A stretch of 64,000 bases of DNA from an uncultured Acidimicrobiaceae bacterium (GCA_964579415.1 CAZOGW010000003.1:7759-71758); one strand, 5' to 3'. Positions 34,301 through 51,800 are shown, counted from the stretch's first letter. Translations and numbers: made by a program. The notes: generated from the letters alone by a model not told the origin.

Positions 34301-34446
34301 CCATCCAGAGCGAGGAAGGCTCCGATCTCGAAGTGCCCACTGGCGATGTCTATCGCCGAACTGATGTCGCACCACTCTCGGACGTACTGCAGCGCCTTCC
34401 ACTCCTCGTCGGTGTTGTCGACGATGAACTGCTCAGGAGTCGCCAT
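31360..34446 (-). CDS. Phospholipase-D-family (HKD) nuclease domain fused to SNF2-family helicase (DrmC+DrmD-like fusion), 1028 aa
   Basis: N-terminal KFHAKAYITHSKLKVVGSAALVGSSNFTRPGLTQNVELN is a PLD HxK(x)4D...N motif. SNF2 motifs GFLTDGVGLGKTFVGLML (I), DVIIIDEAHNFRN (II) and VFLLTATPINN (III). C-terminal helicase lobe LRVLISTDVLSEGVNLQDGTLLVNYDIHWNPVRLMQRIGRVDR. Confidence 0.85.
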   Translation of the reverse strand: MATPEQFIVDNTDEEWKALQYVREWCDISSAIDIASGHFEIGAFLALDGAWQKVNKIRLLIGGETSRTTADAIAAALDTSIVIERQNGDAFLAGIEAVVDGIRNDKIEIRVYKPKKFHAKAYITHSKLKVVGSAALVGSSNFTRPGLTQNVELNVRFQGPEVADLQSWYEQHWELATPVNAELLSVLEHNIRGFTPFEVYAKALHALTANVDQTDKSWEESESVIYPMLAPYQREAFHALIEMSRRWNGGFLTDGVGLGKTFVGLMLTEYYAVRHRKNVLIMATKTGQDAVWSPELKEKLPSLFGQFSNVLVRAHTDLTTKQGLAEIEHLAERADVIIIDEAHNFRNHGKTPTEENPWGSRWWRMHEICQGKTVFLLTATPINNSFFDLVHQAELFTGVDADDHFASIGVNSLRKYTVELEKPFKSNVPDHAAIAGLMSRDKLFQSIIHQSSRKYAIESSRIVGGADVVFPETQVPRVVEYEFGALYSPLFTELQNAFNRKTPLFVLPMYYPLAFSKDEDVDTVAENRQRQVVALIRTIFLKRFESSLAAFAGSCLDLSAKILHWLDVNTRIDPDQQMRLADWRAANDSTLQAIHDRYRSTLEEVWHEEDLTEEELGELGVNLVGGEYNLQEMIDAAFEDLDQLNRFMDLTLAGAGYDDKYLRLRDLLLGPSKAGIRTLDKAVFTPEFRNEQVIVFTEFADTARYLEEQLRKDGVADIDRLDGTRSNDRYAMIKRFAPFYNKVSAADRRTLAPLRVLISTDVLSEGVNLQDGTLLVNYDIHWNPVRLMQRIGRVDRRMNPVIEAQLIREKPSAKKSRGHIQIRNFLPPAEIEALLTLYNRVQNKTLMISKALGIPGGKLFDESDMFDDVKVFQAFKDEYDGDIAPIEALRLTWLQLVKDDPGLEELIERLPEGISVAKTGEPSGVFICRRVPVLTKAHDDDADSEWTLDTGAVEWALRTSDGVERGLHTVDAAISAQPTDQAQAFSDRSSLRATLREFERGETKRLRKETQLPLDAPSPKTLCWMEIR

Positions 34447-35141: not shown

Positions 35142-35747
35142 TCAGTGACCGCCGGCGACCTTGAAGCCCAATCCCGCGAGTCGCTCGGCGGTTGCGCTCT
35201 CCTCGGCTTTGGCCTGATCGCGATCGAACAGCGGGCCCACCGGCTCTAGGTCCGGGCGTCGTCGCAGGAAGTGCTTGGCCACCACAGGTGAGTAGAGCTT
35301 TCCATGAGCTCCGACCGCGAGAGTCCGATGCTGCTCGATCCGGCGGTCCACGTCGATCGCCGTCTCCCCTACGTAGACCCAGCCAACAGTCCCCGGGGGA
35401 CTCGGACTCAGCTCGACGACGTAGACGCGCCAGAGGCGCTGATCCCGGTTGACGGTGAAGCCGAGCCCGGCCAGGCGCCGACAGGCGTCCCGTCCCGTCG
35501 CATCACTCGGATCCGCGAGGTCGGGGCGCAGCCTCTTGACACGTTCGCGAGCCCACTTGGGCTTCCCCCTTCCCGCCGCCAAAGCACCCAGCTTCGCCTC
35601 AGTGTCGAGCGTCAGGATGACGACCAGGTTCGGCCGATCACCCACTCGGCGGGGCACGACATCATCGACTTCGATGATCGCCAGACGCAGCGCAGGAACA
35701 GCCTGAAGGCCACCGCCGGTGGGCTGAGAGGTCGCCTCGCGTGTCAT
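35142..35747 (-). CDS. Hypothetical protein with a possible GIY-YIG-like nuclease core; start uncertain (the track ORF extends to 35894 through a low-complexity P/R/S-rich leader)
   Basis: WRVYVVELSPSPPGTVGWVYVGETAIDVDRRIEQHR reads as GIY...YIG...R..E.H. RLAGLGF occurs twice, the second copy at the C-terminus. Internal Met MTREATS taken as the start. Confidence 0.4.
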   Translation of the reverse strand: MTREATSQPTGGGLQAVPALRLAIIEVDDVVPRRVGDRPNLVVILTLDTEAKLGALAAGRGKPKWARERVKRLRPDLADPSDATGRDACRRLAGLGFTVNRDQRLWRVYVVELSPSPPGTVGWVYVGETAIDVDRRIEQHRTLAVGAHGKLYSPVVAKHFLRRRPDLEPVGPLFDRDQAKAEESATAERLAGLGFKVAGGH

Positions 35748-35871
35748 TAGCTGCGATCCTCGCTCGGGCTGGCGGTGACCCATGAGAGATCGGGGATTCG
35801 CCACCGGGCGCGGGGACCCTTGTGGCGAGGGACGCGGGCGCACGGACGGCGTGGCATCAGTCGCGCGTGCC

Positions 35872-36519
35872 TCACCAGCGTCTCCAAGTGTCACGGCCAG
35901 ACAGCTCCATGGATGTCACGAAGTCCGCGGCCGCCAACAACCCGGGGCCGTTCGCGGTCTGAAGGGGTAACGGCGCGCTGTCGGGGCTGCTCAACCAGAA
36001 GTGTTGTTCGGCGGCGCGGAAGTCGCTGTCAACGACGACCAGCCGACCCTCCGGCCATTGAACAGGTTGGTCGATAGCGTGGAACAACGTGTGGAGTTCC
36101 GCGCTCATCCTTCGGACGTCCGCTGCAGCCCGCTCCTCGTCCATGTAGACCCCACCCCAGCCGCGCTGGGCGAACACTGCGGCTCGATCGGTGACGATGA
36201 GGTAGGTGATGCCGTAGGAGTTCGCGCCATGACCGCAGTGGCCGAGGTAATAGCGCTGTCGCCAGTCGCCGTCCACGAAGCGCGACACCTCGGGAGAGAG
36301 AAGGTAGGCATCCGCCACGGTTGCAGTCTCGGTCTTGCTCCAGCCGCGCTCGTGTAGAAGGCAGCCCCATGCCCATTCGTGGTAGTGCGACAGCTCTGAC
36401 GCGAACCGCGCAGGGACAAAGGGCTCGCCCAAATCCGCCCGCCGCCATCCCGTGAACGACTCATCCACGTCTGGTGACAGGGTCGGTTCGTCCATCAAGT
36501 CGTCGGAATCGGATGCCAT
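35872..36519 (-). CDS. Hypothetical protein (about 215 aa from MASDSDDLMDEP); unknown function
   Basis: The ORF 35872..36759 has an R-rich low-complexity leader, so an internal start is preferred. GC-rich third codon positions. Confidence 0.4.
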   Translation of the reverse strand: MASDSDDLMDEPTLSPDVDESFTGWRRADLGEPFVPARFASELSHYHEWAWGCLLHERGWSKTETATVADAYLLSPEVSRFVDGDWRQRYYLGHCGHGANSYGITYLIVTDRAAVFAQRGWGGVYMDEERAAADVRRMSAELHTLFHAIDQPVQWPEGRLVVVDSDFRAAEQHFWLSSPDSAPLPLQTANGPGLLAAADFVTSMELSGRDTWRRW

Positions 36520-36640
36520 CCTTACCTCCTGGCGGTGTCGAGTCGCTTGAGCTCTGTGACGCCCCGGGCGCTCCGATCCGTCACGTCGGCGAGTGCGCTC
36601 GCCCTCAGCGACCTGGGCTCCGGGCAGTCCCCCCACTCGG

Positions 36641-38407
36641 TCATGTCGCCAAAGCCGCCACTGATGGTCGGACCCTGCCCACGCCCCCTGCACGCTCGTG
36701 CAGCCACTCCTGGACCGTGACCCAACCCATGCAGTCCGCAGCAGTGGCCTGACTCTCAACCCACTTCGGAGCCTGCTGCTTCAGAAGAGCCTTCGGCAGG
36801 TTGACCAGGTCCGCCGCCATGGCAGTCGTGAGCGCCCGCGGCCAGACATCTTCGGCTTCCCGCACGGCGAGCTTGCGATCGAGCGGCGCCTGCCCGTACC
36901 TGAGGACGATCCGATTCGGCTGGGTGTGGAAGTTGTGGAGGATCTTGGCCGAGCGCTTGCCCATCTGGTCGCTGTCGAGGAGGGCCAGCACCGGCTTGGA
37001 GGTGGATTGCGACATGAGGACGGCGATCGCAGGCAGCTTCGTGGCTCCCGCCGCGGCCACGAACTGGACTCTGTCGAGCAGATCCTCGCGACCGGCTATC
37101 CGGGCTGCTATCCGCATGTAGTCGATGTCCGTCTGCCCCTCGGTGATGACGACGAAAGCCGCGTGCCTGTCGACGGACTGGGCGGTTGCGAGCAGCCGAC
37201 TCACGCCTGCGTCCCGGAAGAGGAACCCCGCGTGATCGCGTCGACTGTCCGAATGGATAGAAGAGCGACCATCCGGCGCCTTGCTGATTCCGACAACTCG
37301 ACCCTCCTTTGCGTCGAGGTCCGGGATCATGAAAGGCGAATGGGACGTGACGAGCACGGACGTGTCTCGGCTGGCCGCAAGACCGACCAGAGACTCTCGC
37401 ATGAGCTCCTGGGCGGCCGGATGCAGGAAGGACTCGGGCTCCTCCACAGCAAGCACCAGGGAGCGATGGCTCTGCGCGGCCAGGTAGCGAAGGACGGCGA
37501 CCAGCACGCCCGCGCGCACGCCGGTGCCCTTGGCGCGAATGTCGGACTCCATCGCGTCGCGCAGCTGCACGCTCATCGAGGAGAGGGTGTCCTGGAGGGA
37601 AGGGATGGCTGGCAGGAGATCGGCCGAGGACATCTCCGGGAACAGCTGCCCAGTCATGGCTGCGATGTCGTCGCTCAGTGGTCGTAGGAGGGATTGCCTC
37701 ACGTGTTCGGCGTAGTGGTTGCGCGCCTCCTTCGCCCGATCCAGGTCCTCCCTCAGGTGATCCTCGATCACGCCTTCGAGGACCTCCCGGAAGGGGCCTT
37801 GCAGCACCGAATCAAGCGATTCACCGCTGCGGATCTTGACGAGGCGAACGTGCTCGTGGAGGAGGTCGAAGAGCCTGTCGTGCTCGCGGGACCCCTCCGG
37901 AGGGTAGGGCGAATCGCTGGCGGTCGGCTTCTTCCTCCCGAGCCCGGGGACCCCCAGGTACTCATGGCGTGTGACGGTGCCGGCGCGGACCCGCACGAGC
38001 GTGGTGAGAACGATGCGTCCCTGGGCCGCATGGGTGCCCCGACGATTGAACTGTCGGTTCGCCGACCGCTCGTAGTCGAGGGCACGCCTCAACAGCGTCC
38101 GGTCCCGGCTGGGCGCACGCGAGTCCGGGCGCGCTGTAGTCGTGAGGATCAGCTCGACCCGGAACTCCTTCGTCGCCGCACCGTCGGCGAATTTGGGAAA
38201 GTCCAACCGGGGGTTGACGTACGCGTGCGTCGAGGGGTCCTCCCAATGCGCCCCACCATGCAGCGCGATCCCGATCGCATCGAGGATGTTCGACTTCCCG
38301 CTGTTGTTGGGGCCGACCAGGCACGTCAATCCCGGACCCACAGGCATGTGGTGCGCCGAACCCGCGAATGAGCGGAATGCGCTGACCTTGACCGACTCCA
38401 GAATCAT
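36641..38407 (-). CDS. OLD-family ATP-dependent endonuclease (AAA/ABC-type ATPase + TOPRIM), 588 aa
   Basis: GGAGGG Shine-Dalgarno-like sequence then ATG at 38407: MILESVKVSAFRSF...LTCLVGPNNSGKSNILDAIGIAL (P-loop). LVLAVEEPESFLHPAAQ is the Walker B/D-loop of OLD/GajA-type ATPases. TOPRIM FVVITEGQTDIDYM...LALLDSDQMGKRSAK. The track ORF 36641..41248 (1535 aa) continues upstream only as antisense read-through of the Hsp70-like gene. Confidence 0.85.
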   Translation of the reverse strand: MILESVKVSAFRSFAGSAHHMPVGPGLTCLVGPNNSGKSNILDAIGIALHGGAHWEDPSTHAYVNPRLDFPKFADGAATKEFRVELILTTTARPDSRAPSRDRTLLRRALDYERSANRQFNRRGTHAAQGRIVLTTLVRVRAGTVTRHEYLGVPGLGRKKPTASDSPYPPEGSREHDRLFDLLHEHVRLVKIRSGESLDSVLQGPFREVLEGVIEDHLREDLDRAKEARNHYAEHVRQSLLRPLSDDIAAMTGQLFPEMSSADLLPAIPSLQDTLSSMSVQLRDAMESDIRAKGTGVRAGVLVAVLRYLAAQSHRSLVLAVEEPESFLHPAAQELMRESLVGLAASRDTSVLVTSHSPFMIPDLDAKEGRVVGISKAPDGRSSIHSDSRRDHAGFLFRDAGVSRLLATAQSVDRHAAFVVITEGQTDIDYMRIAARIAGREDLLDRVQFVAAAGATKLPAIAVLMSQSTSKPVLALLDSDQMGKRSAKILHNFHTQPNRIVLRYGQAPLDRKLAVREAEDVWPRALTTAMAADLVNLPKALLKQQAPKWVESQATAADCMGWVTVQEWLHERAGGVGRVRPSVAALAT

Positions 38408-38626
38408 GGGCTGCCCTCCGTTGAGGCACGGCAGTCGCACTGTGCAGTGCCGAGGCCCCTCGATTCCTGCTGACCAAGTATTCCGCTGGGTCGCTCGGCC
38501 GATGACCTTCAGGGTGCAGTTCAGTTCTTGAGCTTGCGCGGTTGACGTGGTCGGCCGACCCTCGGCGCCGCGCGTCCGGCTCCCCACTGCGCCTAGCCTC
38601 GGAGGCCCGAGTCGCGGCCGCATGCC

Positions 38627-41092
38627 ATGGGGAAGGCGAGGTACCCGATGTCCGCACCCTTCGATTGGCTCGCCGATTGGCAGCAGCCCCTCACCACGAA
38701 GGACTCGCTGCGCGTTCTCGGGATCGACCTGGGCACCACCAACAGCACGATCACGGAGATCGTCTGGGAGCCGGGCTCGGATCAGCCGCCGCGTCCCGAG
38801 GTCATCGATGTCGTCCAGCCCACCCACTTGGGGCAGGAGTACGCGGCTGACGTCGTTCCCTCCGTGGTGGCGCTCACGGGCGGCGCGATTCTGGTGGGCG
38901 AGGGGGCAAGCCGACTCCGAGGCACCGCCGAGCCGCACCTCACCCGGAACAAGGACATCTTCTGGGAGTGCAAGAACGAGATCGGCACACGCCGGACCTA
39001 CCGAGGTGCGCCGGATGGGTTCAAGACCCCACGCGACATCGCTTCGCATGTCCTGCGGTTCCTGCACGAGGCCGCGCTCGACTATGCCCCTTCGCCGATC
39101 GATCGGGTGGTCATCACCGTGCCCGCCTCCTTCGGCTGGGAGCAGCGCCAGGACACGTTCCTCGCCGCGGAGCAGGCGGGCCTCCACGTGCGACCCGGGG
39201 ATCTCCTCGACGAACCGGTGGCCGCATTCCTCGACTATCTGTCCGTGCACGGTGGGCAGGCCGCCCTCGGCAGGCGCTCGGTGAGCCGCCTCATGGTGCT
39301 GGACTTCGGTGGCGGCACCTGCGACGTGGCGATCCTGGAGGCCCGGGCTGGCAGCGCACACGCACCCGCACAGCCGGGGCCGGCCGGTGGACTCGGCGTC
39401 TCCAGGCTGGGGGTGTCCCGGTTCCATCGCATCGGCGGCGGTGATCTCGACACCGCCCTGGCGCTCAAGGTCCTCCTGCCCCAACTCGTGGCCCAGAACG
39501 CCGACGCGGGGCGCTTCTCGTACTCGGACAAGCGCGACTACTTGCTGCCCGCCCTCACGGGGGTGGCGGCTGTGCTCAAGATGAAGCAGTCCGAGTTGGT
39601 CCGGAATCGGCGACGTCTGGGCAGGTTCGACCCCAAGGATCCAGCGCTGACCGTCTCCCTGCCAGGTGTCTCCACCATCCCGGTCGGGGTCAGGGGCGGC
39701 GTGGTCCAGACGCTGCGCCTGGCCGCCCCCTCCCTCACGTACGACCAATTCGTCCAGGCGGCCCAGCCCTTCCTCTCCCGCAGGCTGCTCATGCCGCGTG
39801 GCGACGAGTACCTCCAGGCCCAGAGCGTGTTCGCGCCCGTCGCCGACGTGCTGCAGCGCAGCGATCTCGAACCGGGTGACATCGACGCCTGTCTGTTGGT
39901 AGGGGGCAGCAGCCTCCTCCCGCTGCTCGCCGACGAGGTCGAGAAGTACCTGCCGGACGCGGCGATCCTCACCTACAAGGAGTCTCGCGACGCGCTGCGC
40001 TGTGTTGGCCGGGGCGCCGCCGTCCATGCCCTGCTGCTCGCCGCGTACCACGAGAGCCCGCTGTCGCCGACGACGGGAGACGCGGTCAGCATCCGCACAC
40101 GCCAAGGCTTGGAGATCATCGTCCCCCGCAACGCTCCGCTGCCCTACCCGGCGGCGGGCCGCCAGGCCACCCGCCCGAGCCTGCGCATGGCGACGGGGGA
40201 CGGCGCGAGCGCGCAGCCCCTCACCCTCCAGGTGATGTCCGGCATCAGCGAGACGGACGCCCGGACTCTGAGCCTGCACCCGATCACGGTGCAGGCGCCC
40301 GTACGCGCCGGCGACCCCATCGAGCTGGACGTCAGCGTCGACGAGAACCAGCGGCTGTCGCTTCGGGCCGAGGTGCAGACCTCCGCAGGCCCCCAGACGT
40401 TCACTCTGGAGCTGGACAACCCGTTCTCCGTCGTGGTGAATCCGGACGCCAAGCGGGAGCGCATCCGCGAGCTCGAGGAACAGGCGGACGGCATGAGCCG
40501 TGCAGAGCGGATCGAGGCGATCCAGACCCTCGCCCGCCTGCATTGGGAGATCGGCGAGCGCGAGCGGGCGCGTGAATACCTGGAGCGCGTGCTGCCGATG
40601 GTCCCGGCACATCGCCGCGGCTACGTGCTCAACCTCCTCGGCATCATCAGCGGCGAGCTGGGCGACACCGATGCGCAGGTGGAGTACTACCAGGCTGCGG
40701 CAGAAGCCGGGCTCGGCACCGTGCCCCTGTTCAACCTGGCGATCGCTCTCCTGCGCCAAGGCAAGCCGGACGAGGCCCTGCTCATCATCGACGACGTGGT
40801 GGCTCGCGACCGAAGTCCGGAGAACCACGCCCTTCGCGGCCGGATCCTCGATGAGCTGGGTCGCGACACCGAGGCGCGAGCGGCGCAGCAGAAGGCGATC
40901 GACGGGCTGCACAACCCCAGAGGCGAGGACGACTTCGTCCTCTCCTGGGTCAAAGGCGCGGCGGACGCGGTCGGTGACGAGGACAAGGCCCGGTCGATCA
41001 AAGAGGAGCAGGCTCGACGACGGCGCGAGGGCGACGGGGGACGCAACGCTGCCCCCATCGGTACCCCGGACGGCTTGCCGGACCGGGCCTGA
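38627..41092 (+). CDS. Hsp70/DnaK-superfamily ATPase with C-terminal TPR repeats (821 aa)
   Basis: LRVLGIDLGTTNSTITEI is the phosphate-1 motif. VLDFGGGTCDVAILE is the DxGGGTxD motif. The C-terminal 200 aa have TPR-like helices (AIQTLARLHWEIGERERAREYLERVL..., YYQAAAEAGLGTVPLFNLAIALLRQGKPDEALLIIDDVV). Confidence 0.8.
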   Translation: MGKARYPMSAPFDWLADWQQPLTTKDSLRVLGIDLGTTNSTITEIVWEPGSDQPPRPEVIDVVQPTHLGQEYAADVVPSVVALTGGAILVGEGASRLRGTAEPHLTRNKDIFWECKNEIGTRRTYRGAPDGFKTPRDIASHVLRFLHEAALDYAPSPIDRVVITVPASFGWEQRQDTFLAAEQAGLHVRPGDLLDEPVAAFLDYLSVHGGQAALGRRSVSRLMVLDFGGGTCDVAILEARAGSAHAPAQPGPAGGLGVSRLGVSRFHRIGGGDLDTALALKVLLPQLVAQNADAGRFSYSDKRDYLLPALTGVAAVLKMKQSELVRNRRRLGRFDPKDPALTVSLPGVSTIPVGVRGGVVQTLRLAAPSLTYDQFVQAAQPFLSRRLLMPRGDEYLQAQSVFAPVADVLQRSDLEPGDIDACLLVGGSSLLPLLADEVEKYLPDAAILTYKESRDALRCVGRGAAVHALLLAAYHESPLSPTTGDAVSIRTRQGLEIIVPRNAPLPYPAAGRQATRPSLRMATGDGASAQPLTLQVMSGISETDARTLSLHPITVQAPVRAGDPIELDVSVDENQRLSLRAEVQTSAGPQTFTLELDNPFSVVVNPDAKRERIRELEEQADGMSRAERIEAIQTLARLHWEIGERERAREYLERVLPMVPAHRRGYVLNLLGIISGELGDTDAQVEYYQAAAEAGLGTVPLFNLAIALLRQGKPDEALLIIDDVVARDRSPENHALRGRILDELGRDTEARAAQQKAIDGLHNPRGEDDFVLSWVKGAADAVGDEDKARSIKEEQARRRREGDGGRNAAPIGTPDGLPDRA

Positions 41093-41093
41093 G

Positions 41094-42323
41094 ATGTGGC
41101 TCGTCCCCTTCGAGGACCTCTCGGCCGACCAAGCAGCTGCGGTGGCGCTGGACACGAGCAAGCACCGGATCATCCGCGGTGGTCCGGGCTCCGGCAAGAC
41201 CTTGGTGCTAGCCCACCGGGCCAAGGCCCTGATCGAGCAGCGCGGCATCCCACGGGAGCGGCTGCGCGTGCTCGTCTATACCCGGGTGCTCAATGCCTAC
41301 ATCCGGCAAGGCCTGGCCGACCTTGGGCTCGCAGACGTCTGCCAGGGCTACGACGAGTGGTGCCGATCGGTTCTGAGCGCTCGGCGGATCCCGACGCCGA
41401 AGGGCAGTCCCGGGAGCGTGACCGAGCTGCTCCGGACGCTCGTACTGGAGGCCCTGTCGCAGGACGCCGAGCCGATGCTCGACGCGATCCTCGTCGACGA
41501 GGGCCAGGACCTCACCGAGACGATGCTGCGCATCCTGCCCCGCGCCGCTCGCCACGTGACCGTGGCCATGGACTCCGCGCAGCAGCTCTACGAGGAGGGC
41601 TCCGACCTGGGTCGCGTCGCGGCAGCCCTCTCCTTGCCGGCCCGCCCCGCTGCCCTCCTGACGGCCTATCGCTGCACTCCGCACATCGTCGGTCTGGCAT
41701 CGGTCTTCCTCGACGACCCAGGGGAGCGGCACCGCTTCCGCTACGCCAACCTGATGCCGCTCGGCGCGAGCGAGCAGCCGGTGCTCGTCACCTCCCCGGA
41801 TGAGGAGGCAGAGCTCGACACGCTCGCCGCTGCCCTCCAGGAGCGGGCCTTCGTGGGCCAGCGCAGCGTCGTGCTGCTCCCCACCAATCGCGACCTGTTC
41901 CGCTTCAAGAAGCGGTTGCGGGAACGGGGCATGGACGTCTATCACCGCAAGGAGCTCGGCTTCGACGGCAACCGGCCTCTCCTGCTCACCTACCACTCCG
42001 CCAAGGGTCTCACCGCCGAGGCGGTCTTCCTGCCCAAGCTAACCGTGGGAGGCTTCGACAGCAGGCCCGACGACATGGTTGCCCGGATGCTGTTCGTCGG
42101 CGTGACCCGGGCCACCGAGTGGGCGTGGTTGGGGACCCGAGCGTCCGACCGGCTGCCGCTGCTCGCCCGGCTCGGGGCCCCCCTTCGCGAGGGTCATCTG
42201 GTGGACCTGTCGACTTCGGCGCCGCAGACCGTCGAACCCGACGGGGGCGGCCGGCCGAAACCGCCGACGGAGCCGACGGACGACTCTGCGGGCGACGACG
42301 AACTCATGGACCTGTTCGACTGA
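41094..42323 (+). CDS. Short UvrD/Rep-like SF1A helicase (409 aa)
   Basis: ATG 2 nt after the Hsp70-like stop. IIRGGPGSGKTLVLAHRAKALIE (Walker A), ILVDEGQDLT (DExQD), C-terminal TYHSAKGLTAEAVFLPKL and LFVGVTRATEWAWL (UvrD_C motifs). Confidence 0.75.
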   Translation: MWLVPFEDLSADQAAAVALDTSKHRIIRGGPGSGKTLVLAHRAKALIEQRGIPRERLRVLVYTRVLNAYIRQGLADLGLADVCQGYDEWCRSVLSARRIPTPKGSPGSVTELLRTLVLEALSQDAEPMLDAILVDEGQDLTETMLRILPRAARHVTVAMDSAQQLYEEGSDLGRVAAALSLPARPAALLTAYRCTPHIVGLASVFLDDPGERHRFRYANLMPLGASEQPVLVTSPDEEAELDTLAAALQERAFVGQRSVVLLPTNRDLFRFKKRLRERGMDVYHRKELGFDGNRPLLLTYHSAKGLTAEAVFLPKLTVGGFDSRPDDMVARMLFVGVTRATEWAWLGTRASDRLPLLARLGAPLREGHLVDLSTSAPQTVEPDGGGRPKPPTEPTDDSAGDDELMDLFD

Positions 42324-42334
42324 GAGGCAGCGCG

Positions 42335-45067
42335 ATGACCGAGATCGAGCACCGGTACGCGATGTTCGTTAGAGGACTCGCGGATCGGCTCGCTATGCCC
42401 GCTCCGGATATCCAGGCCGAGCTGTCCGGCCTGCGTGAGGCGTGGGCGCAGCCCCTGCCTCGCGAGCACCGCCTCGTGAGGCTGCCACCCGATGTGTGGG
42501 GGCGGCTGGCCGCGGCGATCAACGGCCATCGGTTCGGAGCCGACCCGTACGACCGGTTCCTCCCACCGGCGATCCTGCGAGGCCTCGACGCGACGTCGGC
42601 GGAGGGGAGGGGGGCTCTCGAGTCGGCCTGGCCGCTGGTCCAGACGTGGCTGGCCGTCCAGGCCGGGCTGTCGACAAACGCCGACAGCCTTCGGCTGATC
42701 AATGAGCGCTACGCGCCACACGTCTGGACCCAGCAGATCGACGAGGGCGACGATCTCGGCGAGGATGCCGATGGGCGTCACCAGCCCGCGAGTGACGGCC
42801 AAAGCGAGACCGAGCGCGGCGGGGGGCGTACCCCGATGGGGCGCGCATCCGAGCCAGCTGGGCGCACGCCGGCCTCGCCCGGGGTTGCCCTTCCACTGGA
42901 TGCGGCCGCGCGCCGCCAGCTTGCACGCTTGCAGGACTCTTTGCCCGACTCGGCCGCGCAGCGAGTCTGCCTGCCCGCGGTGCTGCTTGGGCTGTGGTGT
43001 GGCTCGCTGCGCATCCCGCGGCTGGCATCCGAGTGGGACGAGGTGCGTGGGCTGGTCGAGGAGGGGAGTACCGATGCCGTGGAGAGTCTGCAGCAGGTCG
43101 CTGCGATCCGAGTCTCGATGCTGGCGGAGAACTCCATCGGCGGCCTGGTCCCGGACGCGTGGGAGCGATTGGTGACCTGGGCCTACGCCCGGGCCTCCCG
43201 GTGGGCCGGACAGCGCACGCTCGATCCGGTCCTGCACGCCCAGCTCATCGAGGGCTGGCGGGCCGACCCGCTCCGGGGTGAACCGGTCGGCCCCGGCCTG
43301 GCTGCCAGCCCACGCTGGTCGGCCACTGTGGTCGAAGCGATCACCACCGGCAGCGCCCCCGAGATGACGACCGACGCCGACGTCGTGGTCTCCCGGCCGG
43401 CCTCCACCGCCGATGGGCTGCTCGCCGAGCTGGACGATCTCGAGGGCCTGGCGGAGGTCAAGACGGCCGTCCACGAACTGGTGCAGCAGGTGCAGTTCGA
43501 CCAGGCACGTCGGGTGCAGGGCCTGCCCGTCGTGCCGATGACACGGCACCTCGTCCTCATGGGCAACCCGGGCACGGGAAAGACGACAGTCGCACGGCTG
43601 ATCGGGCGCATCCTGCATGCGGCCGAGGCACTGCCCAGCGCGACGTTCCTCGAAGTGCGGCGAGGCGACCTCGTCAGCAAGTACTACGGCGAGACCGAGA
43701 AGCGGGTCCGCCGGGCCATCGACCAAGCCAAGGGTGGAGTGCTCTTCATCGATGAGGCGCACGCCCTGGCCTCTGGCGATCGGGACGAGTCCGGTGCGCA
43801 CCTCCTCCCGGAGCTCGTCGCCGGCATGGAGAACCAGCGCGACGAGTTCGTCCTCATGCTGGCCGGGTACTCCGCACCCATGCAGAAACTGCTGTCCTCG
43901 GACCCCGGCTTGGCCGGCCGGTTCGGCAGGATCCTCAGCTTCCCCGATCTCAGCGACGACGCCCTGACCTCGGCCTTCCTCAAGCGGGCCGCGGCCAGCA
44001 GGTACCGTCTCGCCGACGACGTCGAGGGCGCGGCGCGCTCCTACTTCGCGCGGCTCAACCGGGGCCAGGGCTTCGCGAACGCTCGTGAGGCACGCAGCCT
44101 GTTCGAGAGCGCGGTTGCCCGGCTCGCGTCCAGGTACGCCGCGGATCGTGAAGCGGTGGACGTAACCGTCATCACGGCTGACGACATCCCCAGGCCTGCG
44201 GGGCCAGGTCACATCGACGAGCCTGCATTGGCGCAGGCGCGCGCTGGGATCGACCGGCTTGCGGGACTCGAGTCAGTCAAAGCCGCGCTGTCCAAGGTCG
44301 CGGACAAGGCGCGACTCGAGCTGCTGCGCGTGCAGCGCGGGATCGCAGCGAAGCCGGTGGTGCCCGGTCACTTCGCGTTCGTGGGGCCGCCGGGCACCGG
44401 AAAGACCACGGTCGCCCGGCAGCTCGGGCAGCTGTTCGCGGCACTCGGTGTGCTGCGCTCCGGGCACGTTGTGGCGGCCAACCGCTCCACTCTCGTTGCC
44501 GAGTTCATCGGACAGACCGCTCCCAAGGTGCGCGAGCAGGTGCAGGCGGCGCTGGACGGTGTCCTGTTCGTCGACGAGGCCTACGCGCTCATGCCGGCGG
44601 ACGCCGCGCGGGACTTCGGAGCCGAGGCCGTGGCCACCCTGGTGGAGGAGATGGAGACCCACCGCGAACGGCTGGTGGTTGTGCTGGCGGGCTATCAGGA
44701 GGACGTCGATCGGCTCCTCGACGCCAACCAGGGATTGCGGTCGCGCGTGAACAATGTGCTCCAGTTCGAGGCCTTCACCCGAGACGAGTTGCGCGTGGTC
44801 GCCGACCAGATGGCTGCCGACTCCCGACTCGTGCTCGAGCCGGACGTGGCCGACCTGTTGGCCGAGCGCGCTTTCGCTGCCCGCAGCGAGCCTGGTTTCG
44901 CGAACGCGCGGGCCATCCGCAACCTGCTCGACGAGGCGGAGGGTCGACTGGCGGCCCGCCTGTCGAGCAGGCCGGCCGACCAGGTCGCCACGCGCGAGCT
45001 CTCGCTGATCACCGTTGCAGATGTGCCTGCAGCGGTCAGCCGGGAGCGCATCATCGGGTTCGTATAG
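42335..45067 (+). CDS. Protein with unknown ~400-aa N-terminal region and two tandem CbxX/SpoVK/EccA-type AAA+ ATPase domains (910 aa)
   Basis: ATG at 42335, 12 nt after the UvrD-like stop; the track ORF starts earlier at 42119 inside the upstream gene. Two copies of the LxxLxGLxxVK...HLVLMGNPGTGKTTVARLIGRIL...GVLFIDEAHAL pattern: VVPMTRHLVLMGNPGTGKTTVARL/GGVLFIDEAHAL and VVPGHFAFVGPPGTGKTTVARQL/DGVLFVDEAYAL. Confidence 0.8.
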   Translation: MTEIEHRYAMFVRGLADRLAMPAPDIQAELSGLREAWAQPLPREHRLVRLPPDVWGRLAAAINGHRFGADPYDRFLPPAILRGLDATSAEGRGALESAWPLVQTWLAVQAGLSTNADSLRLINERYAPHVWTQQIDEGDDLGEDADGRHQPASDGQSETERGGGRTPMGRASEPAGRTPASPGVALPLDAAARRQLARLQDSLPDSAAQRVCLPAVLLGLWCGSLRIPRLASEWDEVRGLVEEGSTDAVESLQQVAAIRVSMLAENSIGGLVPDAWERLVTWAYARASRWAGQRTLDPVLHAQLIEGWRADPLRGEPVGPGLAASPRWSATVVEAITTGSAPEMTTDADVVVSRPASTADGLLAELDDLEGLAEVKTAVHELVQQVQFDQARRVQGLPVVPMTRHLVLMGNPGTGKTTVARLIGRILHAAEALPSATFLEVRRGDLVSKYYGETEKRVRRAIDQAKGGVLFIDEAHALASGDRDESGAHLLPELVAGMENQRDEFVLMLAGYSAPMQKLLSSDPGLAGRFGRILSFPDLSDDALTSAFLKRAAASRYRLADDVEGAARSYFARLNRGQGFANAREARSLFESAVARLASRYAADREAVDVTVITADDIPRPAGPGHIDEPALAQARAGIDRLAGLESVKAALSKVADKARLELLRVQRGIAAKPVVPGHFAFVGPPGTGKTTVARQLGQLFAALGVLRSGHVVAANRSTLVAEFIGQTAPKVREQVQAALDGVLFVDEAYALMPADAARDFGAEAVATLVEEMETHRERLVVVLAGYQEDVDRLLDANQGLRSRVNNVLQFEAFTRDELRVVADQMAADSRLVLEPDVADLLAERAFAARSEPGFANARAIRNLLDEAEGRLAARLSSRPADQVATRELSLITVADVPAAVSRERIIGFV

Positions 45068-45202
45068 GTCCGGTGGCGGCGCCGAGTCCCCGGTTCCGCG
45101 GCACCATGACGTAGCCGACCTCGGCGCAGGCGCCCCCTGGCCCCGAGCTCCCGCGCGAGACTGGCCCGCGAGGTCTCTTCGATGCGTGGGGAGAATGCGG
45201 AC

Positions 45203-46048
45203 ATGTCGCACGTACCCTTCGAGATCATCCCTGGAGACCTCGCCTCGCCGGTCGTCATGCACGTCCCGCACGCCGCCACGTGGATCGAGCCGTCGGTGCG
45301 TGCCGACATCCTTCTGTCCGATGCCGAGCTTGCCGCCGAGCTCGCCGCGATCACCGACGCGATCACCGACGTCGTCGCCGAACGGGCGGCCGCTGCGGCC
45401 AGCATGCGGCCGTGGATCCTCGTCAATCGGACCTCCCGCCTCGTCGTCGATCCAGAGCGATTCCCGGACGAGCGTGAGGAGCTCAACAAGGTCGGAATGG
45501 GCGCCGTCTACGAGCGAACGACCACCGGTGCGGTCCTGCGCAGGCCGACCCCCGCCGAGCGGCAGGCCCTGATCGACGACTACTTCACGCCCTACGCGGA
45601 AGGCATCGCGCAGCTGGTCCGGGACCGGCTCGCGGAGGTGGGAACGGTCACGATCCTCGACGTCCACTCCTATCCACAGGTGCCGAATCCGTACGAGCTG
45701 CACGTCGACCAGCGGCGACCGGAGGTCTGCGTCGGGACCGACGAGCTGCACACGCCGACGGAGCTGCGGGAGCAGACGCTCGCCGCCATGCGCGCGGCCG
45801 CCCCGACCGGGGACGTGGGCCTCGACGCGCCGTTCTGGGGCTGCTACGTCCCCCTCGACCAGTACGGCACGAACCCCGCCGTGCGTGCCGTCATGGTGGA
45901 GATCCGCCGCGACGTGGTCGCGAACCACCTCGATCCCCTCGTCGAGGGCGTGGCCGCGCTGGTCACGCGGATCAGCGAACTGGGGCGGGCCACGGACGCG
46001 GGCGCTTTCGGCCTCGCCGGATCGCCGGAGCACTGCTCGCTGGGGTGA
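45203..46048 (+). CDS. N-formylglutamate amidohydrolase (FGase, PF05013) family protein
   Basis: PVVMHVPHAATWIEP matches the family's N-terminal HxPHAGT-like motif. Start taken at the second ATG, MSHVPF. Confidence 0.65.
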   Translation: MSHVPFEIIPGDLASPVVMHVPHAATWIEPSVRADILLSDAELAAELAAITDAITDVVAERAAAAASMRPWILVNRTSRLVVDPERFPDEREELNKVGMGAVYERTTTGAVLRRPTPAERQALIDDYFTPYAEGIAQLVRDRLAEVGTVTILDVHSYPQVPNPYELHVDQRRPEVCVGTDELHTPTELREQTLAAMRAAAPTGDVGLDAPFWGCYVPLDQYGTNPAVRAVMVEIRRDVVANHLDPLVEGVAALVTRISELGRATDAGAFGLAGSPEHCSLG

Positions 46049-46969: not shown

Positions 46970-48295
46970 ATGAAGATCAACACCTTCCTCGACGTCGACG
47001 TCGTCGCCATCGAGAACGACGACACCGTCACAGTCATGATCGACATCCAGGCCCCAGAGGCACCGCAGAACCCGGACGCGCCCCGCCCGGAGCACACCGC
47101 GATCGTGGTTCTCGATCGCTCGGGCTCGATGTCAGGCGGTCGGCTCGAGGCCGCCAAGCGTGCCTTGATCGACCTCGTGGCGCGGCTGGACGACCGCGAC
47201 ACCTTCGGCCTGGTCACGTTCGACAGCCAGGCGGAGATCGTCATCCCCGCCGGCCGGGTCGCCGAGCTCGGTCGCGAGCGCATCCATCGCCGGATCGCCG
47301 CCGTCCGCACGGGCGGCAGCACCGACTTGTCGAGCGGATACCTGCGCGGACTGTCCGAGGCGCAGCGCGCCGCTGGCGCCGCAGGTGCCACCATCGTGCT
47401 GCTGTCCGATGGGCATGCCAACGCGGGCATCACCGACCCGAAGGCCCTGCGTGACCTGGCCGCCGGTGCCGGAGCGCAGACGATCACGACCTCCACCATC
47501 GGCCTGGGTCACGGCTACGACCAGGACCTGCTCGCCGAAATCGCCACTGGCGGCAACGGCAACCACTCGTTCGCCGTCGACGGCGACGCCGCCGCGGCCG
47601 CCCTGGCCGGAGAGATCGAGGGTCTGCTGAACAAGACCGTCCAGGCTGCGAGCCTGCTCATCCGCCCGACGAACGACGTCGCGACGGTGAGCATCCTCAA
47701 CGACCTGCCGATCCATGCCGTGCAGGGCGGACTGCTGGTCGAACTGGGCGACTTCTACTCCAGTGAGAACCGCCGCCTTCTCATCTCCTTCGCCGTGCCG
47801 GCGATGGCCGCGTTGGGTCTGGCCCAGATCGCCGACCTGGAGATGTCCTACGTCGAGCTTCCCGCGCTGCGGCAGCACACGGTGCGGGTGCCGATCTCGG
47901 TGAACGTGGTTCCCGCCGACCTGGCGGCGGAGCGCGTTCCCGCCCCGGAAGTGCATGCTGAGCGGATGATCCTCACCGCCCAGCAGGCCAAGCGGGCAAG
48001 CGAGGAAGCGCTGGCTGCCGGCGACTTCCAGGCTGCGCAGGCCTCGCTGGACGGGGCGATCACGCACTTTGCTGCGATGGCGCCGGCCGACCTGACCGGT
48101 GACGCTGCCTCAGAGCTCGACTGGCTGCGCACGACGCGCGAAGGCCTCGACCATTGGGACAGCGCCTACACCTCGAAGCGTCTGCGCTCGGACCGCTCCC
48201 GCAAGCACCGCGGGTACCGGACCCGCGAGCAGGGCGGCGAGAAGGGTCCCCACGGGACAAGTGAGCGGGGCTCCGTCGAGGAGTCGCAGAGGTGA
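46970..48295 (+). CDS. von Willebrand factor type A (vWA) domain protein
   Basis: MIDAS motif VVLDRSGSMSGGRLEAAK, and downstream TDLSSG...VLLSDGHAN. AAGGAG Shine-Dalgarno-like sequence upstream of ATG. Confidence 0.75.
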   Translation: MKINTFLDVDVVAIENDDTVTVMIDIQAPEAPQNPDAPRPEHTAIVVLDRSGSMSGGRLEAAKRALIDLVARLDDRDTFGLVTFDSQAEIVIPAGRVAELGRERIHRRIAAVRTGGSTDLSSGYLRGLSEAQRAAGAAGATIVLLSDGHANAGITDPKALRDLAAGAGAQTITTSTIGLGHGYDQDLLAEIATGGNGNHSFAVDGDAAAAALAGEIEGLLNKTVQAASLLIRPTNDVATVSILNDLPIHAVQGGLLVELGDFYSSENRRLLISFAVPAMAALGLAQIADLEMSYVELPALRQHTVRVPISVNVVPADLAAERVPAPEVHAERMILTAQQAKRASEEALAAGDFQAAQASLDGAITHFAAMAPADLTGDAASELDWLRTTREGLDHWDSAYTSKRLRSDRSRKHRGYRTREQGGEKGPHGTSERGSVEESQR

Positions 48296-48825: not shown

Positions 48826-51800
48826 GTGGCTGTCATTGAACGGGTATGGCGCGGACCTCGTGGGGAGAGTCTGCCGAACAGTTGCGATGTGTGGAGGGAT
48901 GGGTCGATGTTCCTGATCGACGGCGAACTGCGGTGGAGCGCGTCCGACCTGTCGGTCGCCGCAAGGTGCGAGTACTCGGTGCTGCGCACGCTGGACTACA
49001 AGCTGGGCCGGGCCGAGCGGATCGAGACACCGCCGAATGCCCTGATGGAGCACATCGCGCGGCTCGGTGACCGGCACGAGGAAACCTTGCTGCGCGAGCT
49101 GACCGCGGCGGGTGATGTGATCGCGCTGGAGCACGTCCGGCCGCCCTACTCCGCGACCGCTCTGCGCGCTGCCTCTCAGGCGACCATCGAGGCATTCCAG
49201 GCCCGCCCCTCCGTGGTGTACCAGGCCGCCTTCTTGGACGGTGAGTTCTTCGGATACGCGGACTTCGTCGAGAGGTCCGAGGACGGCTGGCTGGTCTCCG
49301 ACGCGAAGCTGGCTCGTTCCGCTAAGCCGGTCGCGTTGCTGCAACTGGGCGCCTACGCCGATCAGATCGCGCGGCTCGGGCTGCCGGTGTCCTCGACCGT
49401 GTCGCTGCTCCTGGGCAATGGTGAGCGCGCCGACTTCCGGACCTCCGACGTTCTGCCGGTCTTCGCGGAGCGCCGCGACCGGCTGCGCCAGCTCCTGGCC
49501 GACCATCGCGACGGCGGTACCCCGATCCAGTGGGGCGATGACCGGTACGTCGAGTGCGGCCGATGCGACGAGTGCGGGCAGGCCGCCGAACGGTCCAACG
49601 ACATCCTGCTCGTGGCCGGGTTGCGCGCCGACCATCGCCGCAAGCTCAGAGCCGCCGGCATCACGACGATCGGCGACCTGGCTCGCGCTACAAACCGGCC
49701 GAAGGGGATCGCGCCAGCCACCTTCGCCCGGATCCACTCGCAGGCGGCGCTCCAATGGGATCAGCTGCGGGCCGGACCAGACGCGCCGATCCGCTACGAG
49801 CTCCGGCCGAGCGCTGCGCAGACCCTCGCGCTGCTGCCTGCCCCCTCGGTCGGAGACCTGTTCTTCGACTTCGAGGGCGATCCACTCTACGACGAGGGCG
49901 ACCTGTCGCGGACGGGCCTGGAATACCTCTGGGGGGTCCTCGACGCCAGCGGCTCCCACCAGGCGGCGTGGGCGCACAGCTCGGCGGAGGAGCGCGAGGC
50001 GTTCGAGCGGTTCATCGACGACGTCGCCGAGCGGCGGGTCGTCCATCCCGACTTGCACATCTACCACTACGCGGCTTACGAGACGGCCGCACTCAAGCGC
50101 CTCGCGATGCGCTACCAGACCCGGGAGAAGCAGCTGGACGACCTGCTGCGCTCGGAAGTCTTCGTCGACCTGTACGCGACCGTCCGCGGATCGGTGATGA
50201 TCTCGGCCGGCTCGTACAGCATCAAGAAGCTCGAGCCGCTCTACATGGGCGACGACCTTCGGTCTGCCGACGGCGTGCAAGCAGGCGACGCGTCGATCCT
50301 CGCCTACCACGAGTTCCGCGACCTGCGGGCATCCGAACCGAGAGAAGCGGCGGCCCGGCTCGCAGCCCTCGAGGATTACAACGCCTACGACTGCCGCTCA
50401 ACCCTTCGGTTGCGCGACTGGCTGCTGGAGCGTGCCGTTGAAGCCGGAGTCCGCGACATGATCGAGCCTCGGGCCTTGGACCACCAGGGTGAGCAGGACT
50501 CCGATCAGGACCCGGTGTTCCTCGAGCTCATGGCCCGATCGGGCCCGGCTCGGCACGCTGACCGGACCAGCGAACAGCAGGCGCACGCCATGCTCGCGGC
50601 AGCCATCGACTACTACGGCCGGGAGCGCAAGCAGTTCTGGTGGGAGCACTACGACCGCCTCCAGCACCCCGTCGAGGATTGGTCGCACACGCGAGACGTG
50701 TTCTCGGTGGAGTCCGTCGTGGTCGTGTCGGATTGGGAGGTCCCGGACGGCCGGGCGCGCAACGCCCGCCGGGTCCTGCGGCTCACTGGTGACTGGGCCC
50801 CGGGCAGCAAGCCGAGTGCGTCGTTCCAGGTCGTGTACGCGACTCCCATCCCGCCCGGCGCGGTCGGCCCCGCGGGGGGGCGCTATGGGACGGCCGACGC
50901 CGAGTCGGTCCGACCGGATGAGCTCGATCCACGAGTGGCCCACGTGGTCGAGGACCGCCCGCTCGCCGACACCTTCGCAGACCTGCCCGTGGCGCTGGCC
51001 CCGCCGAAGCCACCCGGCACCAGGCTGATCGAGGAAGCGATCAGGGCCGTAGCTGCGGACGCCGCGACAGCCCTCAGCCTGCCGGATTCGGCTGCGCTGG
51101 ACATCCTCTCCCGGCGCCCCCCGAGACTCCGCAGTGGAGCAGCCCTGGCTGCCGTCGGCTCGACGATTGACGACGTGGTCGCCTCGCTGCTGGCGATGGA
51201 CGACTCGTATGTGGCGATCCAGGGCCCCCCAGGGACGGGCAAGACGTACACCGGGTCCCGGGTCATCAGGGAGCTGGTCAAGGAACACCGCTGGCGGATC
51301 GGTGTGGTCGCCCAGTCCCATGCGGTGGTGGAGAACATGCTCGGCGCGATCGTCAAGGCGGGGCTGGATCCCGCGCTGGTGGGCAAGAACGACAACGACT
51401 CTGGCGACCCCACGTGGACCGTCCTGAAGAAGAACGTGGGGCCTCGGGTGCGGTTCCTGCAGGAGCATGCCGGCAGCGGCTGCGTGCTCGGCGGGACAGC
51501 GTGGACGTTCGCCAACTCCAAGCTGGCGCAGGCAGGTGGGCTGGACCTTCTGGTCGTCGACGAGGCGGGCCAGTTCGCCTTGGCCCCGACGCTCGGCGCC
51601 TCGGTGTCGGCCCGGCGTCTGCTGCTGCTCGGCGATCCGCAGCAGCTGCCCCAGGTCAGCCAGGGCACACACCCCGAGCCCGTCGACGAGTCCGCGCTCG
51701 GCTGGCTGATGCGCGGCCACGACACACTCCCGCCGGAGCACGGGTACTTCCTCGGGCAGACGTATCGGATGCATCCACGCCTGGCCGAGAAAGTGTCGGG

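Follow-up and report, generated by a model that had tools for sequence, protein, structure and literature searches.

An Hsp70-TPR and UvrD-like gene pair with a tandem AAA+ partner: a candidate defence module in an uncultured Acidimicrobiaceae bacterium

The operon described here lies in a 64,000-nucleotide stretch of DNA from an uncultured Acidimicrobiaceae bacterium (GCA_964579415.1 CAZOGW010000003.1:7759-71758), which was analysed as a whole and is referred to as the window. Three adjacent genes, termed A, B and C, encode an Hsp70-family ATPase with tetratricopeptide repeats (TPR), a minimal UvrD-like helicase or translocase of superfamily 1A (SF1A), and a protein with two AAA+ modules of the CbbX/SpoVK/EccA type (Table 1). 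An earlier note on this DNA had recognized three translationally coupled NTPases of these superfamilies, a description that is borne out by the open reading frames (ORFs), the Pfam matches and the 1-nt and 11-nt spacing of the genes. Profile searches on each protein with Pfam, NCBIfam and PADLOC likewise upheld the domain identities.

The operon and its three proteins

The TGA of A (41090-41092) is followed by a single nucleotide and the ATG of B at 41094, as the earlier note had it. Between the stop codon of B (TGA, 42321-42323) and the ATG of C at 42335 lies the spacer GAGGCAGCGCG, which contains a GAGG Shine-Dalgarno-like motif and measures 11 nt rather than the 12 nt given before. Alternative ORF starts at 40500 (B frame) and 42119 (C frame) represent upstream extensions that overlap the preceding genes, and B and C are unlikely to begin there. 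For A, the NCBI protein product P0001 (814 aa, 100% identity) places the start seven codons downstream of 38627, at codon 8. The GC content at third codon positions (GC3) is 0.88 in A, 0.89 in B and 0.85 in C, a common codon-position GC signature. A consensus scan, which does not cover other promoter types, found neither a sigma-70-like promoter nor an intrinsic terminator within 38300-45400. The shared GC3 and the absence of such internal signals are consistent with a single transcription unit. The nearest relatives are actinobacterial (a Nanopelagicales metagenome-assembled genome (MAG); WhiB-containing flanks).

Table 1. Position of the operon, its protein domains and neighbouring features, counted from the first nucleotide of the window
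Feature	Position	Strand	Description
Gene A	38627-41092	+	Hsp70-family ATPase, 821 aa, TPR at the C-terminus
A, nucleotide-binding domain (aa 28-475)	38708-40051	+	actin fold in the model; profile matches to DnaK/BiP nucleotide-binding domains
A, beta-sandwich substrate-binding domain (aa 479-597)	40061-40417	+	all-beta in the model; aligns with the SBD-beta of DnaK
A, TPR domain (aa 608-803)	40448-41035	+	eleven helices in the model, at the usual position of the alpha-helical lid
Gene B	41094-42323	+	minimal SF1A UvrD-like helicase/translocase, 409 aa
B, extreme C-terminal tail	42300-42320	+	acidic-hydrophobic, ELMDLFD-COOH; conserved motif in B homologues
Gene C	42335-45067	+	910 aa; helical N-domain, then tandem CbbX/SpoVK/EccA-type AAA+
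C, N-terminal all-alpha domain (aa 1-365)	42335-43429	+	low-complexity insert at aa ~142-184
C, AAA+ module 1	43430-44209	+	Walker A GNPGTGKT, Walker B FIDEA, pore-loop-like KYYG
C, AAA+ module 2	44222-45034	+	Walker A GPPGTGKT, FVDEA, pore-loop-like EFIGQT
OLD-family gene	36641-38404	-	ABC-ATPase/TOPRIM nuclease; divergent, upstream of A
Divergent intergenic region OLD/A	38405-38626		222 bp
Two overlapping ORFs	35142-36759	-	250 and 295 aa; gap between OLD and HKD-SNF2 genes; GC3 0.73-0.74
Tiamat TmtA-like gene	4279-8787	-	near full-length match
PDC-S53-like gene	10802-13543	+	near full-length match to a PADLOC candidate
1117-aa ORF	17804-21157		overlaps the DruE gene 5'
DruE-type helicase gene	21154-25800	+	
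Type IIG/ISP-like methylase gene	28025-31363	-	with Type_ISP_C
HKD/PLD-SNF2 helicase gene	31360-34446	-	overlaps the methylase gene by 4 nt
vWA protein gene	46970-48295		
MkoA-like gene	48826-52356	+	1176 aa

Protein A is matched by Pfam HSP70 (E 1.9e-23) and, at aa 610-760, by multiple TPR families (TPR_8/16/2/19 and TPR-S); consensus TPR proteins in the PDB are also matched. In an AlphaFold2 model calculated from 28 homologues (predicted local distance difference test score (pLDDT) 86, predicted template modelling (TM) score 0.80), the best Foldseek matches are to the nucleotide-binding domain (NBD) and beta-sandwich substrate-binding domain (SBD-beta) of DnaK (7kru, TM score 0.71 on the target). 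The catalytic residues D34, K116, E196, D226, T231 and D233 are invariant across the 28 homologues. The score against the DnaK model of NCBIfam is 92 bits, with a cut-off of 822, and no family of PADLOC 2.0.0 was matched. As modelled, A is an Hsp70 in which a TPR domain replaces the lid.

Protein B matches the Pfam families UvrD-helicase, AAA_19 and UvrD_C_2. A set of 59 homologues shows conservation of the motifs Q, GxPGSGKT, DEGQD, YRC, SAKGL and VGxTRA, so that the SF1A motor motifs Q, I, II and IV-VI of 1A/2A are present in the family. B is short: family members have 400-510 aa, compared to ~650-720 aa in full-length SF1A enzymes with 1B/2B subdomains. Its best PADLOC match is the NERD+UvrD model (4.4e-23), which spans the whole helicase core, while that to GajB (1.3e-13) is partial. 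Matches to the NCBIfam models uvrD, pcrA and rep are confined to the first ~70 residues and reach about 20-32 bits, with cut-offs above 900.

A new feature of the B family is its C-terminus, where a variable low-complexity linker is followed by a conserved tail of the form DDLxDL[LF]-COOH (for example DDLLDLL, DDLSDLF or DLDFL; B proteins of the loci numbered L001-L088 and L239-L241). The tail is also seen in the clade that bears C. The strict pattern phi-x-[DEN]-phi-phi(-x)-COOH is present in 32 of 63 complete B proteins, and further members have LDFL-type variants. Among all 930 ORFs of these loci the strict pattern was found 36 times, only five of them in ORFs other than B; the motif is specific to B. 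Because B carries this tail and its partner A carries a fused TPR domain, their sequences suggest a docking pair similar to that of EEVD tails and TPR co-chaperones. In form, the tail resembles both EEVD-type TPR ligands and the acidic tails of single-stranded DNA-binding proteins (SSB).

Protein C contains two AAA (PF00004) plus AAA_lid_6 modules in Pfam, at aa ~400-620 and ~680-900, with Walker A and B invariant in both modules among homologues. The two SpoVK/CbxX/EccA-like AAA+ domains of the earlier note therefore stand; the N-terminal region of unknown type, which it had put at 400 aa, is shorter (~365 aa). The modules match the SpoVK, EccA and CbbX models of NCBIfam with E-values of 1e-121 to 5e-110, every score being below the curated cut-off (392 bits against 467 for EccA, TIGR03922). 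In an AlphaFold2 model (pLDDT 82) the best Foldseek match is CbbX (3syl, 38% identity), and the tandem arrangement is like that of p97/Cdc48. In PADLOC, B and C match only generic helicase or AAA models (GajB, IetA, TRIP13).

The N-terminal domain of C (aa 1-365) gave no match in Pfam, NCBIfam or PADLOC and none to TPR, and Foldseek gave no assignment of its fold, the matches being dominated by the AAA+ modules. An exhaustive phmmer search of 1.84 billion proteins found nine representatives, all of 853-891 aa and with the same architecture. In one locus (L240, 13635-16185) separate ORFs encode the two parts of C: the N-domain has 330 aa (25% identity to C aa 12-305), and the tandem AAA+ protein has 506 aa (48.5% identity to aa 406-910). 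The cause may be a true split or a frameshift in the assembly; in both cases the N-domain can be separated from the rest.

Distribution of the pair, the triad and the OLD neighbour

The A family comprises 3576 proteins scored at E<=1e-5, and the top 120 are ~800 aa long, ~40% identical and drawn from many phyla. At least 429 A loci were confirmed in species-representative genomes and the best 80 were retained (L006-L085). These best 80 are all from MAGs, with zero cultured isolates, and belong to Acidobacteriota, Desulfobacterota, Verrucomicrobiota, Planctomycetota, Gamma-, Beta- and Alphaproteobacteria, Clostridia and others. In 73 of 85 loci B is the gene directly 3' of A, the two often overlapping by 4 nt, and the exceptions are mostly contig ends. 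A homologue of C was found in only one of those 85 loci, the closest relative (L006). The full-length C homologues gathered by protein search are all located behind A-B (L086, L087, L088, L239 and L241), and a neighbour-joining tree of A groups the C-bearing loci in a single clade. Since B follows A in most loci and C is confined to one clade of A, the A-B pair is the conserved core, and A-B-C is a rare monophyletic subtype. Of the neighbourhood whose conservation the earlier note proposed to check, the A-B part holds across many phyla, C is limited to its one clade and the OLD gene drops out.

The region downstream of B is variable. Among 47 loci with at least 1 kb of sequence after B, the operon stops at B in 20, where a convergent gene comes next; another 20 have a same-strand gene adjacent to B, and in seven the same-strand gene is farther away. 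Several of the genes adjoining B are defence-like (a 1730-aa SF1 helicase with DUF559, an SF1 helicase-PLD fusion, NERD-UvrD, a YhcG PDDEXK protein, DUF3800, a IIG methylase), and others are plainly unrelated (a symporter, a hydrolase, a metallopeptidase). A conserved third gene for all A-B pairs was rejected on account of this heterogeneity. A conserved small gene upstream of A was also rejected, as the 140-270-aa ORFs found there are mostly non-homologous and only those of L018 and L020 match. An apparent A-B fusion in L048 is an ORF-calling artefact, the tblastn frames of A and B being different.

About seven of the 82 non-redundant loci have an Hsp70-TPR gene without a UvrD-like partner (L049, L052, L054, L063, L067, L076 and L080), some of them followed by unknown ORFs of 240-325 aa. 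In L080, A is followed by a 245-aa ORF, then by a Schlafen/AlbA_2 protein and the Type III genes Mod and Res.

The search of 2.9 million viral contigs yielded a single full-length member, and that of 72,556 plasmids yielded none. The patchy phyletic spread and the variable contexts nevertheless lead us to infer that the module is horizontally mobile.

The divergent neighbour upstream of A belongs to the OLD family, as had been noted earlier (PADLOC Old 1.1e-34; Pfam AAA_15 and AAA_21; an SMC_N match). E...DxD TOPRIM-like motifs can be read in the translation, and no TOPRIM profile matched. Co-variation of this gene with the operon, which the earlier note proposed to check, is not supported by the comparison: OLD homologues are present in none of the 82 A-B loci (tblastn and phmmer), and OLD homologues elsewhere lack Hsp70, UvrD or AAA+ partners of this kind. 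The closest (52% identity) has no Hsp70, UvrD or AAA+ neighbours, and one of 38% identity is located in a block of McrBC, Type III restriction-modification (RM), and OLD plus UvrD-PDDEXK genes. The codon signature also differs, with a GC3 of 0.82 in OLD versus 0.85-0.89 in A-C. OLD and the block downstream to the methylase have both GC and GC3 below those of A-C, which suggests that this block was acquired separately. Because no co-occurrence is seen from either side, OLD is an independent adjacent defence gene outside the module. A DUF3800 gene lies near a distant OLD homologue. The two overlapping ORFs between the OLD and HKD-SNF2 genes of the window, which may be genuine genes or partners of OLD, have no Pfam, PADLOC or NCBIfam match and only a moderate GC3.

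Genomic context of the A-B loci

Unsupervised clustering of all ORFs from the 82 non-redundant loci identified only two recurrent neighbour families, both of which also occur in the window: an HKD/PLD-SNF2 helicase (17 other loci) and a Type IIG/ISP-like methylase (9 other loci). One or both lie within 10 kb in 18 of the 82 loci, and in 9 of the 34 loci flanked by 8 kb or more on each side; these and the other neighbour counts are raw frequencies among A-B loci. The helicase gene shares the strand of A-B in 14 of 17 cases, and the association is scattered over the whole tree of A. The co-linear order helicase, methylase, x, A, B (PLDhel-MT-x-A-B) is found in six distant lineages (L018, L020, L026, L071, L072 and L075). 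L018 is from Thiohalocapsa sp. PB-PSB1 (CP050890), and L075 is a Rhodoferax locus. L051 has the order PLDhel-A-B-MT, and the helicase gene abuts A in L009 and L013. These arrangements match the "embedded defence", or guilt-by-embedding, pattern described by Payne et al. (10.1101/2024.01.29.577857).

The association was also examined from the other side. None of 80 metagenomic HKD-SNF2 loci, including 17 close homologues, carries A, whereas the methylase is directly downstream of the helicase in 12 of the 17. A-B as a core component of the HKD-SNF2 plus methylase system was rejected on the basis of this reverse census. A DUF3800 protein (~280-320 aa) recurs in loci with HKD-SNF2, methylase and A-B (L018, L020, L022 and L075), either in the gap that separates A from the methylase or immediately behind B.

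When the nearest flanking genes encoding 250 aa or more are considered, the commonest Pfam families are ResIII, PLDc_2, Eco57I, Helicase_C, N6_Mtase and SNF2, and the rest are diverse, including metabolic genes. Individual loci show a range of settings. DruA-domain, GmrSD and Type ISP methylase genes are found alongside L001, with integrase/transposase genes near. A-B comes after DISARM-like genes in L002 and after a type III CRISPR-Cas/Csm6 cluster in L004, and in L046 a NERD-UvrD gene is directly after B. For the triads, a UvrD and a YprA-type helicase are alongside L087, and that of L241 adjoins Type I hsdMSR. L086 has groES/groEL, whiB and IMPDH genes alongside and integrase or transposase genes near. 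In L239 the triad is inside a DISARM/ARMADA-like operon, with all genes on one strand in the order DEAD helicase, UvrD, Helicase_C, MZB, A, B, C, a 384-aa ORF, SNF2 and Eco57I methylase. The relatives are in conflict-type neighbourhoods rather than in housekeeping, stress or ESX loci, and the earlier reading of the genes as a conflict-type set holds.

The window itself is rich in defence genes (Tiamat, PDC-S53, Druantia-type DruE, IIG methylase plus HKD-SNF2, Old and MkoA-like). Two genes are matched over nearly their full length, one by Tiamat TmtA (E 0, 1331 bits) and the other by the PADLOC candidate PDC-S53 (E 0, 1312 bits), and a defence island therefore takes up no less than the first 52 kb of the window. 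The DruE-type helicase (PADLOC DruE 4e-178) is preceded by a 1117-aa ORF without a match. Because this ORF sits at the DruH position before DruE, the pair at 17804-25800 is probably a Druantia type III system. The HKD-SNF2 and methylase genes (28025-34446), in a low-GC patch (0.60-0.63), look like a split Type ISP-like restriction system. Beyond the operon, the MkoA-like protein combines PD-(D/E)xK, RNase_H_2-like and SF1 (AAA_11/AAA_12) regions and matches the Mokosh MkoA models (1.9e-44). Upstream of its gene are those of a vWA protein and a 171-aa ORF without a match.

Possible function and relation to known systems

What is said of function here is inferred from gene context and sequence conservation. 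On balance, we think it probable that A-B-C is a self-contained, co-transcribed cassette, namely the rare AAA+-bearing subtype of a widespread, apparently undescribed A-B module. This module behaves as a horizontally mobile inhabitant of defence islands, where it often abuts methylation-based restriction systems or is nested in them, and its function is most likely directed against phages or mobile genetic elements. In the mechanism we envisage, A would act as sensor and regulator. Its TPR groove would hold B by the DDLxDL[LF] tail, as EEVD tails are bound by TPR co-chaperones, and its SBD-beta would bind an extended stretch of an invader protein or of a nucleoprotein complex that has stalled. 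Hydrolysis of ATP by the NBD might then release or activate B on the invader DNA, where B could strip proteins, unwind replication intermediates or pass the DNA to neighbouring nucleases. In the triad, C would be a hexameric, double-ring remodeller of the CbbX type with pore loops, whose private N-domain could dock to A or B. It might add an unfolding step like that of ClpB with DnaK, as an effector or a resetting factor. Since A, B and C are without a nuclease, the killing step may be the protein or DNA remodelling itself, or may be supplied by nucleases of the neighbours; the latter would fit the frequent embedding in restriction systems. We propose more tentatively that A-B, with or without C, is a hitherto unrecognized chaperone-centred immune system, widespread among uncultured bacteria of more than ten phyla, in which a lidless Hsp70 would serve as infection sensor for a phage protein or a stalled nucleoprotein complex and license a tethered helicase through the TPR/tail latch, often as a second layer in restriction systems.

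Several observations weigh against this interpretation. Neither a nuclease nor an obvious toxic effector is encoded by A, B or C, and J-domain or GrpE genes are found neither in the operon nor among the recurrent neighbours. About half of the A-B pairs stand alone, the operon ending at B in 20 of 47, and many flanks consist of ordinary metabolic genes; the frequencies of the defence neighbours carry no background correction. The module is nearly absent from plasmids and viral contigs, so that its mobility is read from the patchy spread and the variable contexts. The proposed docking of tail and TPR rests on conservation, and the ORFs that take the place behind A in the ~7 loci without B do not have the tail motif. 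The tail could alternatively be a DNA mimic, an SSB-like tail, an autoinhibitory element or the ligand of another partner.

The main alternative, which we regard as rather unlikely, is that the genes form an accessory or remodelling module of translocating restriction machines (HKD-SNF2 plus Type IIG/ISP, DISARM/ARMADA-like, or Type I/III RM). By analogy with the action of ClpXP on HsdR, such a module might act on stalled helicase-nuclease complexes by loading, recycling or removing them, or might alleviate restriction and so protect the host chromosome. It would account for the co-linear PLDhel-MT-x-A-B arrangements and those of L051, L009 and L013, for the triad inside a DISARM/ARMADA-like operon, for A near Type III RM in L080, for an association that extends over the whole A tree, and for the lack of effector domains in A and B. 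However, the association is one-sided, as none of the 80 HKD-SNF2 loci carries A, and about three quarters of the fully flanked A-B loci lack such a partner within 10 kb. These two facts argue against an obligate accessory role. The partner systems also differ in type, and several triads are located between housekeeping genes.

Other explanations appear considerably less probable. A specialized housekeeping or stress set, with an Hsp70-AAA+ disaggregase and a repair helicase, is improbable: Hsp70 together with tandem AAA+ does resemble DnaK-ClpB, the GC3 is host-like and L086 lies beside groES/groEL, whiB and IMPDH, but the neighbourhood is not conserved, the phyletic spread is sporadic, and scores against DnaK/HscA are far below the cut-offs (92 vs 822 bits). 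Furthermore, the flanks are mostly restriction-type or variable, with chaperonin genes only at L086, and the N-domain of C is extremely rare. We give slightly less credence still to a cassette with a replication, transfer or anti-defence function in an integrative element. Hsp70 remodelling of helicase complexes is classical in phage lambda replication, the distribution at ~40% identity is patchy, and integrase or transposase genes are near L001 and L086; the search of viral contigs and plasmids described above speaks against such an origin, as does the lack of a conserved integrase, relaxase or replication gene with the pair. Least credible of all, and contradicted by the co-occurrence data, is a four-gene conflict system that would have OLD as the effector of the three NTPases, by a Gabija-like logic joined to a split EccA. 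OLD and a UvrD-like protein are Gabija components, B has weak GajB matches and the 222-bp divergent region is common to OLD and A, but OLD does not accompany the pair in any of the 82 loci, its homologues occur without A, B and C, and its GC3 differs. B is coupled to A rather than to OLD, and no ESX genes were found.

If the proposal is true, chaperone-based sensing would be added to prokaryotic defence, with Hsp70 as receptor or regulator of a helicase and with an optional unfoldase; a bacterial Hsp70 would be an immune receptor, often in a second layer embedded in restriction systems. To our knowledge, no validated system uses chaperone-based sensing, for which there are only computational hints (CnuD of CoCoNuT and DnaK-like protease modules). 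The module's recurrent embedding in loci of the HKD-SNF2/methylase, DISARM/ARMADA-like and Type I kinds would be a model for the attachment of second-layer modules, and the helicase tail and the Hsp70-fused TPR make up a directly testable interaction hypothesis. As the family is almost entirely found in MAGs, this may explain its absence from defence-system catalogues and from screens of cultured genomes and of E. coli or Bacillus homologues. The window carries the rare triad form, and we consider the find more interesting than the earlier note stated.

The inability of the earlier note to assign the combination to a named system is shared by the present analysis. A is without a PADLOC match, no NCBIfam model scored above its cut-off for A, B or C, and the literature searched contains no description of an Hsp70/DnaK-like and UvrD/helicase pair in defence. 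The A-B module is thus apparently undescribed. Like the canonical Hsp70 proteins DnaK, HscA and HscC, A has an actin-fold NBD with the catalytic residues and an SBD-beta, but it has TPR at the position of the lid and scores below the equivalog cut-off. The combination of Hsp70 and a tandem AAA+ remodeller recalls the DnaK-ClpB (Hsp70-Hsp104) bichaperone, and a TPR domain with an acidic C-terminal peptide on its partner recalls the TPR-EEVD docking of Hop and CHIP. However, in the arrangement proposed here the TPR is fused to Hsp70, the tail would act from the helicase, and no J-protein or GrpE is encoded.

C shares with the CbbX/SpoVK/EccA clade modules that have AAA_lid_6 and pore-loop-like motifs, in tandem as in the type II AAA+ proteins p97/Cdc48. 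CbbX, SpoVK and EccA have one AAA+ module each, and EccA has a TPR N-domain and is located in ESX loci. C differs in having two modules and a unique helical N-domain found only in this system. The earlier idea of an EccA split across proteins thus reduces to membership in the AAA+ clade, given that the N-domain of C is not a TPR and that the TPR belongs to the Hsp70. ESX genes (EccB-E, MycP, WXG100) were not found among the Pfam-labelled genes around the window operon or in L086, L087, L088, L239, L240 and L241, nor was a secretion context seen.

Among helicases, the NERD-UvrD helicase-nucleases (PADLOC C3a187, type III CRISPR-associated) provide the best PADLOC match of B, which instead of a NERD nuclease domain has the conserved C-terminal tail. 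Gabija also places a UvrD-family motor in a defence context, and OLD is adjacent in the window. GajB has ~500-650 aa and is co-operonic with GajA, whereas B has ~410 aa, matches GajB partially (E 1e-13), follows an Hsp70 gene and occurs elsewhere without OLD. In the window, OLD is on the opposite strand, and the divergent region and the whole Hsp70 gene lie between it and B.

DISARM/ARMADA loci, with an SNF2 helicase, large adenine methylase, YprA-type helicase and UvrD-like ArmD, host or adjoin A-B(-C) in L002, L087 and L239. The ARMADA core consists of YprA-type (DUF1998/MZB) and SNF2 helicases and an adenine methylase, and ArmD is a UvrD whose N-terminus is a RelE-like domain; the main text of the YprA/ARMADA preprint mentions no Hsp70, DnaK or chaperone, and the paper on enterohaemorrhagic E. 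coli describes ARMADA II as the four genes armABCD (10.1101/2025.09.15.676423; 10.1101/2025.09.22.677730). A, B and C are not components of these systems, and the relation is one of context or embedding.

Other predicted systems contain an Hsp70 or DnaK-like module as a putative sensor or assembly factor. These include GTPase-centric conflict systems, in which the partners of HSP70 are GTPases, tubulin, GrpE and DnaJ (Kaur et al. 2020, PMC7159879), and lidless DnaK-like domains fused to EACC1-protease modules, with a caspase-like protease and a pore former (PMC12642450). A UvrD-like helicase and a TPR fusion are missing from both. CnuD of Type III CoCoNuT combines an Hsp70-like NBD and SBD with HEAT-like repeats, is described as having degenerate ATPase motifs, and is tied to operonic McrB-like NxD GTPases and McrC (DUF2357) with coiled coils; some CoCoNuT operons also contain a tandem SpoVK-type AAA+ protein and are found beside RM, GmrSD or Druantia III (Bell et al. 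2024, PMC11090510). McrB or McrC genes are present neither in the window operon nor among the recurrent neighbours. Compared by description, A and CnuD share an Hsp70-like NBD and SBD followed by helical repeats and a place in a predicted defence operon. A differs from CnuD in having TPR, invariant catalytic residues and a UvrD-like partner.

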